From: a phage
Strand: one strand, 5' to 3'
Length of the DNA: 64,000 nucleotides
Sequence record: PX880101.1
Position numbers and translations under genes: made by a program. How positions within the stretch are numbered: position 1 is the first letter of the stretch; every line of letters begins with the position of its first letter. Below the pieces are notes generated by a model. It had not been told where the DNA came from. It searched no databases and saw nothing but the letters and a program-made list of their open reading frames with translations. Shown piece by piece: positions 54,299 to 61,205 of this stretch.

Positions 54299-55060
54299 TT
54301 AAAGTTCCATAAAGTTTTCTACAGTTTCAATAAATGCTTTATCAGAGAAAGCGTCAACAGCACCGTTAAACCATACAGGGATCCCGCGATCCTCATATTG
54401 ATAAAGGTCGCTACGTGAAATGCCACTTCCATCTGCACTCTGCGAATCATACTTGTTTACAATCAGCAGTTTTGTGCCTTTACAAGTAGCAGGAAACAAT
54501 TCCCAGTTAAAATTAATAACTGTGTTAGAACAACCTACCAGGATCACCATATCATTGCTTGTGAGAGATGTCAACAGGTCATACATGTCTGTATACTTAG
54601 GAGCAACCTCACCGAAGAACACTACATTGGGCTTAACCCAGGTATACTTGCCTGTATCTACCTCCGTGTATCCGATATTTTTAATTACATCATTACCTTC
54701 AGCATCTTCGTAGGTGATTTCAGGCAAATACCCGTGGACATGTAAAATATCTTCATGTTTTACACCAGCACGCTCCAGCAAATCATCTACATTGGTAGTA
54801 AGGTTGATCACACGACCAGACCAGCGGGAATACCACTCAGCGATCCGAAGATGTGCAAGGTTAGGATCAACACTGCCCAGAGCTACACGACGTGCATTGT
54901 AAAAGTCATGCACCTTATAGTAGTTCTTGGCAAAGGTGTGGATGTTGCACACCTCATCGATGCTGAAATTCTCCCACATTGCAGTGCTACCAGATCGGAA
55001 AGTGGGAATACCAGATTCAGCGCTCAAACCAGCACCGGAGATAATAATCAGTCGTCGCAT
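54299..55060 (-). CDS. Sir2-family (sirtuin-like) NAD-dependent enzyme
   Basis: GAGLSAESGIPTFRS and NVVFFGE match sirtuin signatures; no CxxC zinc ribbon seen. Confidence 0.7.
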   Translation of the reverse strand: MRRLIIISGAGLSAESGIPTFRSGSTAMWENFSIDEVCNIHTFAKNYYKVHDFYNARRVALGSVDPNLAHLRIAEWYSRWSGRVINLTTNVDDLLERAGVKHEDILHVHGYLPEITYEDAEGNDVIKNIGYTEVDTGKYTWVKPNVVFFGEVAPKYTDMYDLLTSLTSNDMVILVGCSNTVINFNWELFPATCKGTKLLIVNKYDSQSADGSGISRSDLYQYEDRGIPVWFNGAVDAFSDKAFIETVENFMEL

Positions 55061-55068
55061 AAGTGTCC

Positions 55069-55449
55069 TCAGTAGATGTTTTGTTTAATCTCTATTCCAA
55101 ACTTCTTGAATGAGTCAGCAGCAAGCATAAATTTACGAGCTGCCGATGGATTAGAAGTATGCACGAAAATAATCACGTTGTCAATAAGTGGTGGCTTTCC
55201 GAATACAAGTTTCTCCTCTAGCGCAGAGAAGCAGTCGTACCCTTCAAGCACTTCACCTAGATCATTGTCAAAATGCCACTCAGAAACGCGCCTGTAGAGC
55301 TTTCTATTATCGTTAATAAAATCCATGAACTCAGAAGAGTTCTTCAGCCAAAGAGCATCTTGGATTCCGTAATTTGACGGATCTCTCAAGTCATCTAGCC
55401 ACACAATCAACTTCTTCATTGCATATAGTCCTCGTTGTGAAAATAGCAA
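55069..55449 (-). CDS. hypothetical protein
   Basis: ORF. Confidence 0.4.
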   Translation of the reverse strand: MLFSQRGLYAMKKLIVWLDDLRDPSNYGIQDALWLKNSSEFMDFINDNRKLYRRVSEWHFDNDLGEVLEGYDCFSALEEKLVFGKPPLIDNVIIFVHTSNPSAARKFMLAADSFKKFGIEIKQNIY

Positions 55450-56333
55450 TCAAGTATCTCACGGCGTTCCTGCTCCAGGAGGCAGTTCCACACATCTTCT
55501 GTGTAATTGCTACGAATGAAGTTTACCATGCCATAAAACTCTTCGTCAATACGTTTAAAGATATCATCATCCCAAATCTTCCAAGCTTTACCCCTCATTA
55601 CGGCCTTCCGTGCCAAATAGTATGGAGACTTGATCTTCAGCTGCAGGTCATAAGGGTAGTAAGGCTTACGGATCATATACCCTTCGCCCCTTGTTTCTGC
55701 AGCTAATTCTTTTGCATAGCTGAACGGGATTTCACGCACAGTGTGAGGACGTTTTGCACCAAGGTATTTGGCAATCCCATCTAAAGCTGCTTCTGGTAGC
55801 ATTATTCCAGAATCATTATATCTGCAACCTATCAAATATGCGCCATGGTCTTCTTGAACAATATGCGGATCTGAAGGGTGACAAATTTCAAACATGAATG
55901 TCATGTTTTCATTGCCCATAACCTTCTTGATAAGATCTAAATTACCACATTGCTCTTGGATGGTTTCCTTTGCAAGGTTACAATATGGAGAATCAAGAGA
56001 CCCGGTTGTTGAGAACAATAGGTCACCTTTATGAGATGATACCACACCAAGGAATCCGTTCTTTTTCTCTACCGCAGTCACAAGCTTATTGTCAGGCAGG
56101 TTGGTGGAGTTTTCTCCCAAGTTAAACACTTTTGTGAAGGGCCATGCCACAACATTTCCTTCATTACCTACAACAATGCCTCGGCACTCCAGTAAACGAG
56201 GGGACAAATGCCATAAATTGTTGTAAAATACTTTTCTAGCATATTTATAGATCTTTAACCCGAGATCTGGGTAATACCTACTGGTTACAAGACCTTTGTC
56301 AACTAGGTCGTCTGCATTAAAATACTTCATCAT
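55416..56333 (-). CDS. putative RNA ligase (Rnl2-like nucleotidyltransferase)
   Basis: Candidate motifs I EKKNG, III FMFEI, IV EGYMIRKP, V LKIKS; no DNA-ligase OB fold evident. Confidence 0.45.
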   Translation of the reverse strand: MMKYFNADDLVDKGLVTSRYYPDLGLKIYKYARKVFYNNLWHLSPRLLECRGIVVGNEGNVVAWPFTKVFNLGENSTNLPDNKLVTAVEKKNGFLGVVSSHKGDLLFSTTGSLDSPYCNLAKETIQEQCGNLDLIKKVMGNENMTFMFEICHPSDPHIVQEDHGAYLIGCRYNDSGIMLPEAALDGIAKYLGAKRPHTVREIPFSYAKELAAETRGEGYMIRKPYYPYDLQLKIKSPYYLARKAVMRGKAWKIWDDDIFKRIDEEFYGMVNFIRSNYTEDVWNCLLEQERREILDCYFHNEDYMQ

Positions 56334-56395
56334 ACGTTCCTCATTTGTCGTTTTGTCAGTCTATCCTGTCACACAAATAACCTAGTGTCAACACT

Positions 56396-56424
56396 TGAAA
56401 TTAACAAAACAGTTAGATATACTA
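56396..56424 (+). promoter_or_regulatory. sigma70-like promoter (TTGAAA-N17-TATACT)
   Basis: Hexamers upstream of the kinase gene. Confidence 0.45.
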
Positions 56425-56451
56425 TCGTTGAAATTAAAACGGAGGGTCACT

Positions 56452-56862
56452 ATGTCTAAAATGCTATATATCGTGCGTGGTCTACCAAGGTCTGGCAAAT
56501 CAACACTGGCAAATGCGCTATCTTTAGAGGGTCTGTATCCACATTTTGAGAACGACATGTTCTGGTATGACGATGACGGCAATTACAACTGGGATGCAAG
56601 TAAAGTAACACTCGCAGCGAAATGGTGCAAAGATAACGTAGAAGATATGATGCGTATGGGATACGACCGTATCGTGGTAAGTAATACGTTTACAAAAGAA
56701 AAACATGTGCAGGAATATGTTGACATGGCAATCAGTCATGGGTATAGTTATACCGTGATCGTGGTTGAAAACCGCCACGGTAATAAAAGCATTCATGATG
56801 TTCCAGACAAGGTTGTGGATCGTATGGAACGCCAGCTTAAAAACTGCATTAAACTTAAATGA
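56452..56862 (+). CDS. P-loop polynucleotide-kinase-like protein
   Basis: Walker A GLPRSGKST at N-terminus; start set at ATG after ggaggg RBS. Confidence 0.5.
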   Translation: MSKMLYIVRGLPRSGKSTLANALSLEGLYPHFENDMFWYDDDGNYNWDASKVTLAAKWCKDNVEDMMRMGYDRIVVSNTFTKEKHVQEYVDMAISHGYSYTVIVVENRHGNKSIHDVPDKVVDRMERQLKNCIKLK

Positions 56863-56869
56863 GGAATGT

Positions 56870-57424
56870 ATGAAATACTTTGTAACAAGCGACACACACT
56901 TTCTCCACCAGCGGGTCATGGAGTTTGATTCATGTCAAAAACACAGATCTCAGTATGATCACAATCTTGACAGTATGAATGCGGGAATCATCGCCGAATG
57001 GAACTCTGTTGTGTCACCTGCAGACACTGTGTTCCACTTGGGAGATATTGCGTGCACTAATGATAAGAATATCAACAACTTACTTCCAGATATTCTAAAT
57101 ATGTTGAACGGACATATTATTCTTGTTCGTGGCAACCATGACACAAGGACGACTGTCAGAATTATGAAAGAGTTCGGTCATGAGGTTGTAGATTATTACG
57201 AGCTTCGCCACAACAAGAATTTGATCTGTATGAGCCATTACCAATTTGCAAAGTGGAACAGAAAGCCTCACGGATCAGTCCAACTGTTCGGTCATGCTCA
57301 CGGAACCACACAACAGTTGTTTGGCAGGCAGCTTGATGTCGGTTGGGATGTGTGGGGGAGACTCTTACCATTAGAAGAGGCATACCGTATTGCAATGAGT
57401 TTTGCTATTGACAGCGGGGAGTAA
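56870..57424 (+). CDS. calcineurin-like metallophosphoesterase
   Basis: SDTHF, GDIA and GNHD motifs; start set at MKYFVTSDTHF rather than the upstream in-frame M inside the kinase gene. Confidence 0.6.
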   Translation: MKYFVTSDTHFLHQRVMEFDSCQKHRSQYDHNLDSMNAGIIAEWNSVVSPADTVFHLGDIACTNDKNINNLLPDILNMLNGHIILVRGNHDTRTTVRIMKEFGHEVVDYYELRHNKNLICMSHYQFAKWNRKPHGSVQLFGHAHGTTQQLFGRQLDVGWDVWGRLLPLEEAYRIAMSFAIDSGE

Positions 57425-60257: not shown

Positions 60258-60286
60258 TTGACAAACTTTGCTTAACAGTGTAATAT
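60258..60286 (+). promoter_or_regulatory. sigma70-like promoter (TTGACA-N17-TAATAT) for the tRNA cluster
   Basis: Consensus hexamers ~60 bp upstream of the first tRNA. Confidence 0.55.
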
Positions 60287-60344
60287 TGTAAACATGGTCT
60301 CCCACCTTTTCTGGCGGCTAAGGTGTAAAAGAAAGCCACCCAGT

Positions 60345-60419
60345 GCCCTGTTAGCTTAGTGGATAAAGCAGCGGCCTTCTAAGCCGTTGACACTGGTTCG
60401 AGTCCAGTACGGGGTGCCA
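60345..60419 (+). tRNA. tRNA-Arg (anticodon TCT)
   Basis: Hand-folded cloverleaf: acceptor GCCCTGT/ACGGGGT with G-U pairs, loop CTTCTAA, T-loop TTCGAGT, encoded CCA. Confidence 0.75.
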
Positions 60420-60423
60420 AATT

Positions 60424-60510
60424 GGGGAGTTATCCCGTAGAGGTAGCGGTGTAGACTGTAAATCTATTGTCATTGCGACTCGGGTGGTTCGACTCCACCA
60501 CTCCCCACCA
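60424..60510 (+). tRNA. tRNA-Tyr (anticodon GTA)
   Basis: Acceptor GGGGAGT/ACTCCCC, loop CTGTAAA, long variable arm, T-loop TTCGACT, CCA. Confidence 0.8.
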
Positions 60511-60624
60511 AATTTATATTTTTAGATGCATAAATAATACAGATAATGGCATTGATATTTATCGTCGTTTATACTAGTCACTAACTGCTCGAAAATCAGT
60601 GTCATTATCAGTATAATTTATAAA

Positions 60625-60715
60625 GGAGGGTAGGGAGCAATGGTGCTCAAGCGGTCTTGAAAACCGTCCCGTTGGGTATGACTCGATGATGGTTCGATTC
60701 CATTACTCTCCGCCA
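60625..60715 (+). tRNA. tRNA-Ser (anticodon TGA)
   Basis: Acceptor GGAGGGT/ACTCTCC, loop CTTGAAA, long variable arm, T-loop TTCGATT, CCA. Confidence 0.7.
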
Positions 60716-60813
60716 CATTGTTGACCTTGTAATTAAGCGAAAGCCGGAAGCAGAACCGGATTATCAAATGTTACAGTCGTCATCGCCGACTAGCAACATG
60801 GTCAACATACTGA

Positions 60814-60912
60814 GCTAGGTAAGCCCTTTGGCAAGGGCGAGGATTTTTAATCCTGAAAATAGACGAGGTAGTAGTTGAATACATAGGTGGTTCGATTCCA
60901 TCACCTAGCACC
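60814..60912 (+). tRNA. aberrant tRNA-like element (possible Lys-TTT loop) with ~29 nt insertion before the T-arm
   Basis: Perfect acceptor GCTAGGT/ACCTAGC, D-arm GCCC-TTTGGCAA-GGGC, T-loop GGTTCGATTCC, but oversized variable region and imperfect anticodon stem; no encoded CCA. Confidence 0.35.
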
Positions 60913-60917
60913 TTTTT

Positions 60918-60993
60918 GCTGATGTAGCACAATCGGTAGTGCAATTGATTTGTAATCAATAGGTTGTAGGTTCAAGTCCTGCCATCAGCACCA
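60918..60993 (+). tRNA. tRNA-Thr (anticodon TGT)
   Basis: Acceptor GCTGATG/CATCAGC, D-arm GCAC/GTGC, loop TTTGTAA, T-loop TTCAAGT, CCA. Confidence 0.8.
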
Positions 60994-60994
60994 A

Positions 60995-61069
60995 GGCCCT
61001 GTAGCTGGAAGGTTCAAGCAAGCGACTCATAATCGCCAGACGGTGGTTCAATTCCACCCAGGGCCACCA
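60995..61069 (+). tRNA. tRNA-Met (anticodon CAT; could be Ile-lysidine type)
   Basis: Acceptor GGCCCTG/CAGGGCC, loop CTCATAA, T-loop TTCAATT, CCA; no initiator-type features. Confidence 0.7.
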
Positions 61070-61080
61070 AATAATAAATA

Positions 61081-61157
61081 CTCCGCGTAGCTCAGCTTGG
61101 TAGAGCGCCTGATTTGGGATCAGGAGGTCGAGTGTTCGAATCACTCCGTGGAGACCA
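61081..61157 (+). tRNA. tRNA-Pro (anticodon TGG)
   Basis: Acceptor CTCCGCG/CGTGGAG (C1:G72), D-arm GCTC/GAGC, loop TTTGGGA, T-loop TTCGAAT, CCA. Confidence 0.75.
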
Positions 61158-61205
61158 CTTTCAGTTATACTTTAAACATATATATAAACAAAAGGAACCT
61201 TTAAA

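Follow-up and report, generated by a model that had tools for sequence, protein, structure and literature searches.

The element at 60814–60912 and its fold

The DNA analysed here, a 64,000-nt stretch of phage sequence (record PX880101.1; hereafter the window), derives from an rV5-like Vequintavirus, a myophage of E. coli, and across 60300–61200 it is 99.2–99.6% identical to rV5, Gotham, nomine and BASEL phages. Within this region ARAGORN calls a cluster of seven tRNA genes on the plus strand (60345–61157) in the order Arg(UCU), Tyr(GUA), Ser(UGA), element, Thr(UGU), Met/Ile(CAU) and Pro(UGG), where the fourth gene is the tRNA-like element at 60814–60912 that we describe. Comparison of this gene with its homologues firmly supports its assignment as a real, conserved, non-canonical long-armed tRNA, and as neither an intron-bearing gene nor a pseudogene.

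The ARAGORN call for the element spans exactly 60814–60912 (+) with an uninterpretable 'atcc' anticodon, and the Rfam tRNA model RF00005 matches 60814–60910 at 35.5 bits (E = 0.00095 for the whole window), above its gathering score of 29 bits, with all 71 model positions matched and 26 bases inserted in the variable region. The first-pass annotation of the window had proposed a tRNA-like element here and had allowed that tRNA predictors might place a conventional cloverleaf at other boundaries; ARAGORN and Rfam both returned a cloverleaf at the boundaries first proposed. All four tRNA helices (acceptor, D, anticodon and T) appear in the minimum-free-energy (MFE) fold, which has an energy of −31.3 kcal/mol and z = −3.0 relative to shuffled sequences, and the architecture is a 7/5 cloverleaf. 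The acceptor, D and T arms, described from the outset as well formed, were all located (GCTAGGT/ACCTAGC; GCCC-TTTGGCAA-GGGC; GGTGG-TTCGATT-CCATC), and the stretch of ~29 nt that had been noticed between the anticodon stem and the T arm corresponds to ~30 nt at 60856–60885. The parts of the element are as follows.

60814–60820, +: 5′ strand of the acceptor stem, GCUAGGU (positions 1–7), pairing with 60903–60909
60821–60822, +: A8 and A9 (positions 8–9), placed by the homologue alignment
60823–60838, +: D arm, stem GCCC/GGGC, loop UUUGGCAA, placed by covariation
60840–60854, +: anticodon arm, stem AGGA (60840–60843)/UCCU (60851–60854), loop UUUUUAA (60844–60850), anticodon UUU (60846–60848), placed by the Rfam alignment and the MFE fold
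60856–60885, +: variable region (the 'insertion'), placed by homologue comparison
60856–60861, +: 5′ flank of the variable region, AAAAUA
60862–60876, +: extra arm, 5′ strand GACGA (60862–60866), loop GGUAG (60867–60871), 3′ strand UAGUU (60872–60876)
60873, +: private substitution, A in the window and C in all sampled close relatives, breaking the G60865:C extra-arm pair
60877–60885, +: 3′ flank of the variable region, GAAUACAUA
60886–60902, +: T arm, stem GGUGG/CCAUC, loop UUCGAUU, in which C60893 is C56
60903–60912, +: acceptor stem's 3′ strand, ACCUAGC (60903–60909), discriminator A73 (60910) and CC (60911–60912)

The anticodon stem, initially read as imperfect, proved to comprise four Watson–Crick pairs (AGGA/UCCU) and a G·G at 27:43 that includes G60855, closing a normal 7-nt loop; G60839 is the G26 that flanks this arm. 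Its loop (U32 U33 U34 U35 U36 A37 A38) has the length of 7 nt, the U33 and the purine at position 37 of an ordinary anticodon loop. The terminal A of CCA is not encoded in the window copy. G60831 is the G19 of the elbow pair, and the D arm can alternatively be drawn as a 6-bp stem (GCCCUU/AAGGGC) with a 4-nt UGGC loop, where the added pairs U14-A21 and U15-A20 never vary and are uninformative. U8 is near-universal in tRNAs, and the U8 and A14 reverse-Hoogsteen feature is absent from this family: A8 and U14 are each invariant in 28/28 distinct homologues, position 9 being A or G. A swapped form of the 8:14 pair (A8/U14) could be retained.

The variable region combines two kinds of sequence constraint. 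Its flanks (5′ GAAAA, and AUAC leading into the T stem) are near-invariant from genus to genus, and its centre varies in length and sequence yet is helical in every relative (3–9 bp), on which grounds the 'insertion' is, as judged by sequence comparison, a class-II-like long variable arm. The helices include ACGA/UCGU in rV5 and the compensatory ACGG/CCGU in Av-05, as well as UCCCCC/GGGGGA (EspYZU14), CCUCC/GGAGG (PVP-SE1), GCUCUC/GAGAGU (LNA4) and GUUAGAC/GUCUAAC (PD06); other arms are GCC/GGC or GUC/GAC, capped by the conserved loop GAACUAACAGUAC. The early suggestion of a tRNA with an unusual insertion was thus borne out in the form of a long arm, and the element that bears it is maintained, with covarying pairs, in two subfamilies of phages. 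For a class II tRNA it is unusual to find, as here, 6 and 9 near-invariant unpaired bases where the arm joins the body. An extension of the helix into these flanks through irregular A·G, U-A, A·A and A-U pairing can be drawn by eye in most members; it shows zero covariation and was not adopted.

The first-pass annotation had seen no extra-arm helix, because A60873 breaks the G60865:C pair. That description fits the window copy and does not extend to close relatives, where C in place of A60873 gives a 5-bp arm (GACGA/UCGUU). The substitution is the sole difference over the element from rV5, nomine, AlexBoehm and others, and with it the variable region is predicted to be less stable (−0.8 kcal/mol, as against −3.7 with C). 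The 141 phage records that matched included no exact copy of 60800–60920 (best 99.2%).

Homologues and selection on the structure

BLAST searches with the element and with divergent copies detected it throughout the Vequintavirinae (Vequintavirus, Avunavirus, Seunavirus, Mydovirus and Henunavirus) and in phi92-like Stephanstirmvirinae, unannotated in almost all of these genomes. Pattern scans added 12 viral contigs and 18 metagenome contigs; of 185,579 bacterial and archaeal species genomes none gave a match, a result on which we set aside an integration site or a host origin. From these sources we extracted 30 distinct homologue sequences, 28 of which were aligned (alignment A2). Across the 22 proposed pairs, 99.7% of alignment cells were standard pairs relative to a shuffled mean of 85.4%, both-sided changes occurred in 11/22 pairs as against no more than two in any slid register, and the covariation score was reached by 0/500 shuffles. 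The signal is distributed over the cloverleaf, with both-sided changes in 5/7 acceptor pairs (100% of cells paired), covariation in 3/4 core D-stem pairs (GCCC/GGGC, GACC/GGUC, GCGG/CCGC and GGUA/UUCC), an outer anticodon-stem pair that is A-U in 21 sequences and G-C in 5, and a T stem with 99.3% of cells paired and one pair changed on both sides. The 19:56 tertiary pair is G:C in 18 sequences, U:A in 10 and never unpaired, covariation which indicates that the RNA forms the tRNA elbow and the L-shape. RNAalifold recovered the same cloverleaf unguided. A covariance model of the family scored its members at 90–117 bits (105.5 for the window copy) and ordinary tRNAs, including the class II Ser and Tyr tRNAs of the window, at no more than 30.1 bits, and a scan with this model gave one element copy per genome in the sequence examined.

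These data bear on whether the gene is a decaying tRNA relic that is functionless at least in the window phage. Decay would be in keeping with the private arm mismatch, with the variable 3′ end of the Av-05 class, with the loss by rV5-type phages of most of a ~20-tRNA set that Seunavirus and Mydovirus relatives retain, and with deletion of the element in V18 and O157 typing phage 4. In both phages tRNA-Tyr had recombined with the element, in one case at the arm base and in the other within the T arm, which left chimeras of tRNA-Tyr 5′ and element 3′ sequence with mismatched acceptor stems and no tRNA-Ser (V18, L010 650–750; typing phage 4, L011 640–735). Set against this, covariation in four helices and one tertiary pair over two subfamilies denotes long-term purifying selection, rV5-type phages retained the element while losing ~17 canonical tRNAs, and a fold that the family model still scores at 105.5 bits would probably survive one mismatch in a peripheral helix of 5 bp. 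We regard the relic as improbable, and the pseudogene first mooted for the locus is contradicted at the family level by the 99.7% pairing of stem cells, the 11 pairs with double-sided changes and the covarying tertiary pair.

An ochre suppressor tRNA, or a tRNA interrupted by an intron, has similarly been suggested for this gene, the former by the label 'tRNA-Stop(tta)' in SophiaRose and JLBYU08 (a tRNA-TERM label is found in some GenBank records) and the latter by its length, 24–25 nt greater than that of the class-I tRNAs of the same cluster. The centre of the 7-nt loop is UUU, however, and a UUA at positions 34–36 would require a U·C at the loop-closing pair; a suppressor would also be harmful, since TAA ends 18/31 long open reading frames (ORFs) of the window. 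Orthologues of the UCA class would have a stop-complementary anticodon, and the window copy does not. As for an intron, the ~30 extra bases lie in the variable region and not in the anticodon loop, all relatives retain them as a helix that covaries between conserved flanks, and so short a segment cannot be a group I intron, for which some 200 nt or more with a catalytic core would be expected inside the anticodon loop; no Rfam intron family matched, and bacteria, to our knowledge, lack a tRNA splicing endonuclease. Both versions are accordingly very unlikely in our estimate. The ARAGORN four-base anticodon 'atcc' and 'tRNA-Stop(tta)' are alternative parses that conflict with the covarying anticodon stem, and we rejected them.

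Annotation pipelines have already picked up the gene, under inconsistent names: it is unannotated in the rV5 reference record, tRNA-OTHER in nomine and related phages, tRNA-???(atcc) in slur16, tRNA-Stop(tta) in SophiaRose and tRNA-Lys (codon AAA) in BASEL phages. Coding-sequence (CDS) calls of hypothetical or unknown function overlie it in KE22, Mydo, FENT2, NDO71, Eryne and K54lambda1.1.1, and in view of the RNA covariation these calls are probably spurious. The overlaid short CDS calls are listed here by sequence and position.

L005, 779–898
L026, 386–587
L027, 470–565
L031, 289–483
L033, 410–511
L030, 193–540

The gene is therefore mislabelled or missed in most public genomes, and the family covariance model recovers it cleanly. 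Our search of one library of papers found no published description of the element or of its family. What appears new, on sequence grounds, is the combination of a Lys anticodon, a class-II-like arm, the A8/U14 swap and a labile anticodon cassette, and we know of no earlier long-armed tRNA with a Lys anticodon. We note that 18 records named 'Campylobacter phage' (within MG065635–MG065682) are 98–99% identical to rV5-like E. coli phages at this locus and are probably mislabelled or contaminant genomes.

A looser D-loop-to-T-loop pattern applied to viral contigs matched mostly unrelated sequences and a few doubtful tRNA-like candidates, and added four family contigs, namely a new divergent member (L094) and the phi92-like, PD06-type L066, L078 and L092, where L078 is a one-base arm variant among PD06-type copies. 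The family model also gave a weak match of 43 bits in an unrelated viral contig (L067 29–137), which has the ACUAACAG arm motif and a UUCCA loop in common with the family, and matches of 30 bits each at L086 6797–6897 and L089 4617–4717 (−), which have A8A9 and the TTTGGTAA D arm around an unrecognisable middle. By their sequences these three loci may be distant tRNA-like relatives. In Raoultella phage Ro1 (L024 4–396) an HNH endonuclease gene lies between tRNA-Thr and the element, where the other Mydovirus examined have a tRNA.

Anticodon classes and proposed functions

The homologues fall into four classes by anticodon loop and 3′ end.

Class 1: Vequintavirus, including the window; loop UUUUUAA; A73, then CC
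Class 2: Avunavirus; loop UUUAUAA (UAU); U73 or C73, without CCA
Class 3: Seunavirus, Mydovirus and contig L094; 8-nt loop CC-NN-CCAG, the triplet before A37 being UCC, GCC or ACC; U73-CCA
Class 4: Henunavirus, phi92-like phages and several metagenome contigs; loop (C/U/A)AUCAA(A/G), UCA with A33; U73, mostly then CCA

The scaffold of the family is fixed and its anticodon loop evolutionarily labile, so far as aligned sequences can tell, and it follows that a tRNA scaffold can stay constant while anticodon class and loop size shift between related phages. The discriminator tracks the anticodon class, A73 occurring with UUU and U73 with NCC. Class 1 holds the complete bacterial lysine identity set of A73, U34, U35 and U36 (PMC9976931, Table 1), provided in the window by A60910 and the UUU at 60846–60848. 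Class 3 holds five of the six elements of the glycine set (U73, G1-C72, C2-G71, G3-C70, C35 and C36; PMC9976931), the exception being 3:70, and classes 2 and 4 match no listed identity set. The tRNAscan-SE-based BASEL annotation likewise reports tRNA-Lys, codon AAA. The loop of E. coli tRNA-Lys is CUUUUAA as against UUUUUAA in the element, and where bacterial tRNA-Lys has a short class-I variable loop (4–5 nt) the element has 30 nt including the extra arm.

From these features we infer that the most economical reading for the window phage is a chargeable tRNA-Lys(UUU) variant that would make Lys decoding independent of host tRNA-Lys. Lys codons account for 75 per 1000 in the long ORFs of the window, rV5-type phages have six other tRNAs and no second tRNA-Lys, and four of the six ordinary tRNAs of the window cluster have U34 and read A-ending codons. 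The element would be transcribed together with those six tRNAs, released by RNase P and 3′ trimming, finished at its 3′ end by the host CCA-adding enzyme and charged, it is predicted, by lysyl-tRNA synthetase, after which it would decode AAA and AAG. Promoter-like sites are present at 60258–60286, before tRNA-Arg, which is the annotated P(tRNA) of rV5, and at 60589–60617 (TCGAAA-17-TATAAT), just 5′ of tRNA-Ser and inside the 60511–60624 spacer. No such site was found directly 5′ of the element in the tRNA cluster, for which reason its co-transcription with the cluster is only inferred.

The purpose of such a molecule might be a phage-owned supply of tRNA-Lys whose body and anticodon stem are unlike those of the host tRNA-Lys that E. 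coli defence nucleases (PrrC and PARIS AriB, for example) attack, and it might act alongside the RNA repair genes of the phage, which lie 3.4–5.4 kb upstream.

54299–55060: Sir2-domain protein, adjoining the repair genes
55416–56333, −: Rnl1-family RNA ligase (Pfam PF09511 RNA_lig_T4_1, 55.4 bits; cutoff 28.3)
56395–56862, +: P-loop kinase (Pfam AAA_33, 34.6 bits)
56765–57424, +: calcineurin-like metallophosphoesterase (Pfam Metallophos_2, 28.4 bits)

The AlexBoehm annotation names the same genes RNA ligase, polynucleotide kinase and phosphoesterase; a PDB sequence search with the window RNA ligase gave no match. In T4, tRNA-Lys cut by PrrC is healed and sealed by a 3′-phosphoesterase, a kinase and an Rnl1-type ligase (PMC10264068), and infection blocked by PARIS or PrrC is rescued by tRNA-Lys variants from phages (PMC11464382, PMC11555353). 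The supplement of PMC11555353 does not name the source phages of the tRNA-Lys genes tested. A U-A/A-U swap in the anticodon stem confers resistance to PARIS (PMC11464382). The class 3 hotspot at loop positions 33 and 34, described below, also fits a conflict over tRNA cleavage. The element has A28-U42 and G29-C41 where E. coli tRNA-Lys has U28-A42 and U29-A41, and G29-C41 is common to the element and T5 tRNA-Lys. The element may thus bear on how phages handle tRNA-cutting bacterial enzymes: with a repair module upstream and phage tRNA-Lys counter-defences proven elsewhere, it offers a testable handle on tRNA-targeting immunity in a large, common group of therapeutic-candidate coliphages.

We put at even weight the full proposal that selection maintains the element as a true, if non-canonical, phage tRNA working as a tRNA-Lys tied to conflict over tRNA cleavage, and several observations count against it. 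The sister class of Av-05 type (UAU) has U73 or C73 without CCA and falls outside every listed identity set, and orthologues from other genera replace U33 with A33 or C33 or have loops of 8 nt, U33 being absent outside classes 1 and 2. In Seunavirus, Mydovirus and contig L014, the genomes and contig for which full tRNA sets were listed, the element occurs alongside canonical tRNA-Gly(UCC) and/or tRNA-Lys(UUU or CUU); taken with the loop changes, this coexistence means that a family-wide function cannot be the decoding of one particular codon. The two independent natural deletions, in V18 and O157 typing phage 4, removed the element together with tRNA-Tyr and tRNA-Ser, so that it is dispensable. 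The window copy carries its private, mildly destabilising arm mismatch. The element keeps the E. coli-like A31-U39 where T5 tRNA-Lys has U31-A39, and because one stem pair is T5-like and another host-like, resistance to PARIS cannot be inferred. No long-armed tRNA-Lys is known to us, nor do we know of a counterpart among decoding tRNAs for A8 and the 15 unpaired conserved arm-flank bases. A literature search found no transcriptome data on rV5-like phages.

Several of the same observations would be accounted for if the element were a non-decoding tRNA mimic, that is, an L-shaped RNA outside translation that serves as a decoy, sponge or regulator and whose loop imitates a host tRNA attacked by defence, titrating or inhibiting a nuclease, a modification enzyme or a synthetase. 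The near-invariant scaffold carries a loop that switches class and size (UUU, UAU, UCA and the 8-nt NNCC). R9 aside, class 3 varies in its unpaired core only at loop positions 33 and 34, each of which has three alleles. In a subgroup of six distinct near-identical sequences (108–109 nt) these positions are two of the four variable columns, a hotspot at sites that flank the cut site of PrrC and RloC. The want of U33 outside classes 1 and 2, the 8-nt loop of class 3, the presence in Seunavirus and Mydovirus of canonical tRNAs that share the anticodon of the element, and the 6-, 7- and 8-nt loops of the neighbouring upstream tRNA in those genera all agree with a mimic, as do the stable RNAs of unknown function annotated in phage tRNA clusters such as that of T5; A8 and the elaborate arm flanks could bar normal tRNA pathways or bind a partner. 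Yet the window loop is a textbook decoding loop (U33, UUU, A37 and A38) with A73 to match. Among the Gly anticodons (UCC, GCC and ACC) variation is confined to position 34 and both C35 and C36 are kept, a pattern that would be expected if the anticodon were in use or in contact with a synthetase. The encoded, conserved U73-CCA of classes 3 and 4 points to a functional acceptor end, and no protein turned up as a consistent partner of the element. A mimic, which takes in the tRNA-like regulatory RNA among the readings first offered, is for us a tentative alternative and the chief rival of a working tRNA-Lys.

In an extended form of this idea, which we consider possible though doubtful, the Vequintavirinae and phi92-like phages would share a dedicated tRNA-mimic scaffold (A8/U14, a constant elbow, and a long arm set between conserved flanks rich in purines) bearing a swappable, fast-evolving anticodon cassette that is re-targeted between host ranges (Lys-, Gly-, opal- and Ile-like), and would use it as bait for, or inhibitor of, anticodon nucleases or other tRNA-sensing defences, or as a retargetable nuclease-proof adaptor. 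If true, this would make the family a new class of RNA-based anti-defence element, not an ordinary codon-supplementing tRNA.

The identity elements also permit us to weigh mis-charging, in which an anticodon-blind synthetase, either leucyl-tRNA synthetase (LeuRS) via A73 or seryl-tRNA synthetase (SerRS) via the long arm, would cause misincorporation at Lys codons (in relatives, at UGA or GGN codons), much as allo-tRNAs or tRNA-Sec-like opal suppressors do. A73 is the key LeuRS determinant and the anticodon is irrelevant to that enzyme (PMC9976931), the arm is class-II-like, the possible 6-bp D stem with a 4-nt loop resembles that of tRNA-Sec, and Henunavirus and phi92-like copies carry UCA; the Hena1 copy scores 39 bits against the Rfam tRNA-Sec model. 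That score is nevertheless below the gathering score of 47 and no better than the 41.6 bits of the tRNA-Ser in the window. Moreover, C2-G71, invariant in 28/28 homologues, is a listed SerRS anti-determinant (PMC9976931) and G73 is absent, the acceptor/T configuration is 7/5 and not the 8/5, 8/4 or 9/3 of tRNA-Sec and allo-tRNAs, LeuRS needs D-loop and tertiary features around U8:A14 that are altered in the element, and proteome-wide replacement of Lys by Leu or Ser would harm phage proteins. We judge mis-charging quite unlikely. On the same evidence we rejected membership of the tRNA-Sec family RF01852 (a 7/5 acceptor/T branch in place of the 13-bp 8/5 one; UUU and A73, not UCA and G73, in the window; best member Hena1 at 39 bits, below 47) and an allo-tRNA configuration of 8/4 or 9/3 (7/5 in all members), and consider serylation via the long arm unlikely given the invariant C2-G71 and the missing G73.

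Other features of the tRNA clusters deserve mention. The window cluster has two long internal spacers, 60716–60813 (98 nt) and 60511–60624 (114 nt), the first of which contains the small hairpins CCGG-AAGCAGAA-CCGG and GTCG-TCATCGC-CGAC, and no T-loop motif was seen in it. The tRNA-Ser(UGA) at 60625–60715 is called by ARAGORN and is not listed under the Rfam tRNA model, its only reported Rfam match being the sub-threshold tRNA-Sec match of 41.6 bits (lower-scoring overlaps of the same clan are not displayed); it is missing from the tRNAscan-based BASEL annotation and appears in LR694610 as a bare 'tRNA' note with no product name, which makes it a second under-annotated tRNA in the cluster of the element. 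The CAU tRNA at 60995–61069 is tRNA-Met in rV5 and many records and tRNA-Ile (ATA, implying lysidine modification) in BASEL phages. Directly 5′ of the element in Seunavirus and Mydovirus is a tRNA of a second aberrant family, with U1:A72, G73-CCA and no U33, whose loop differs between phages, being 6 nt (ACGAUA), 7 nt (ACGAUUC or AAGAUUC) or 8 nt (ACAGAUCC), and which ARAGORN calls Ile(gat), ???(agat) or ???(ga). Its copies are as follows.

L005, 619–694
L008, 618–694
L021, 324–399
L038, 5383–5457, −
L050, 3313–3387

At the edge of a 152-kb metagenome contig carrying a UCA-class element, ARAGORN calls a 'tRNA-Pyl (cta)' (L045 7862–7934) with an amber-suppressor-type anticodon.

Comparison with known tRNAs and phage RNAs

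Class II tRNAs (Leu, Ser and Tyr) resemble the element in the 7/5 architecture, the helical, freely varying arm, G18, G19 and the T-loop elbow, and a class II tRNA-Tyr of the phage was similar enough in its T arm and arm base to recombine with it. They differ in that the anticodon of the element is Lys (Gly-like or opal in relatives), none of these being a class II amino acid, and in that class II arm flanks have 1–2 bases where the element has 6 and 9 unpaired near-invariant bases; the tRNA-Ser identity elements G73 and G2-C71 are missing from the element, which also has A8 and not U8. tRNA-Sec and the allo-tRNAs (PMC5389517, PMC7609411) share with it a long arm and possibly a 6-bp D stem with a 4-nt D loop, and with the family as a whole they share UCA, found in Henunavirus and phi92-like copies, and the display of varied non-cognate anticodons on a conserved odd scaffold. 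In contrast to the element and its relatives, they have 8/5, 8/4 or 9/3 instead of 7/5 and G73 instead of U73 or A73, and the C2-G71 of the element is anti-SerRS.

Among phage RNAs, RNA2H and RNAIV of T5 (AY543070) are likewise small structured RNAs in the tRNA operon of a lytic phage, presumably co-processed with it; unlike the element, they do not form complete cloverleaves that have an anticodon arm and carry a synthetase identity set. Both are annotated as stable RNAs of unknown function by the tRNA-Lys of T5 (L108 9–180 and 1039–1101), and the family model matched nothing on this T5 stretch beyond ordinary tRNAs. The species 1 and 2 RNAs of T4, which likewise fall short of a complete cloverleaf of this kind, are stable RNAs co-encoded with phage tRNAs.

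The closest functional parallels are the tRNA-Lys(UUU) genes of T5, which counters PARIS AriB (PMC11464382), and of SP15, which counters PrrC170 (PMC11555353). T5 tRNA-Lys is a canonical 78-nt class I tRNA, whereas the variable region of the element is 30 nt long and the element also has A8/U14, U32 and the host-like A31-U39; a counter-defence role for it is proposed by analogy. Like these genes, the element is encoded in a tRNA cluster of a lytic coliphage and has a UUU anticodon and A73, and it also has the G29-C41 pair of T5 tRNA-Lys, which adjoins the site where AriB cuts (between positions 40 and 41).

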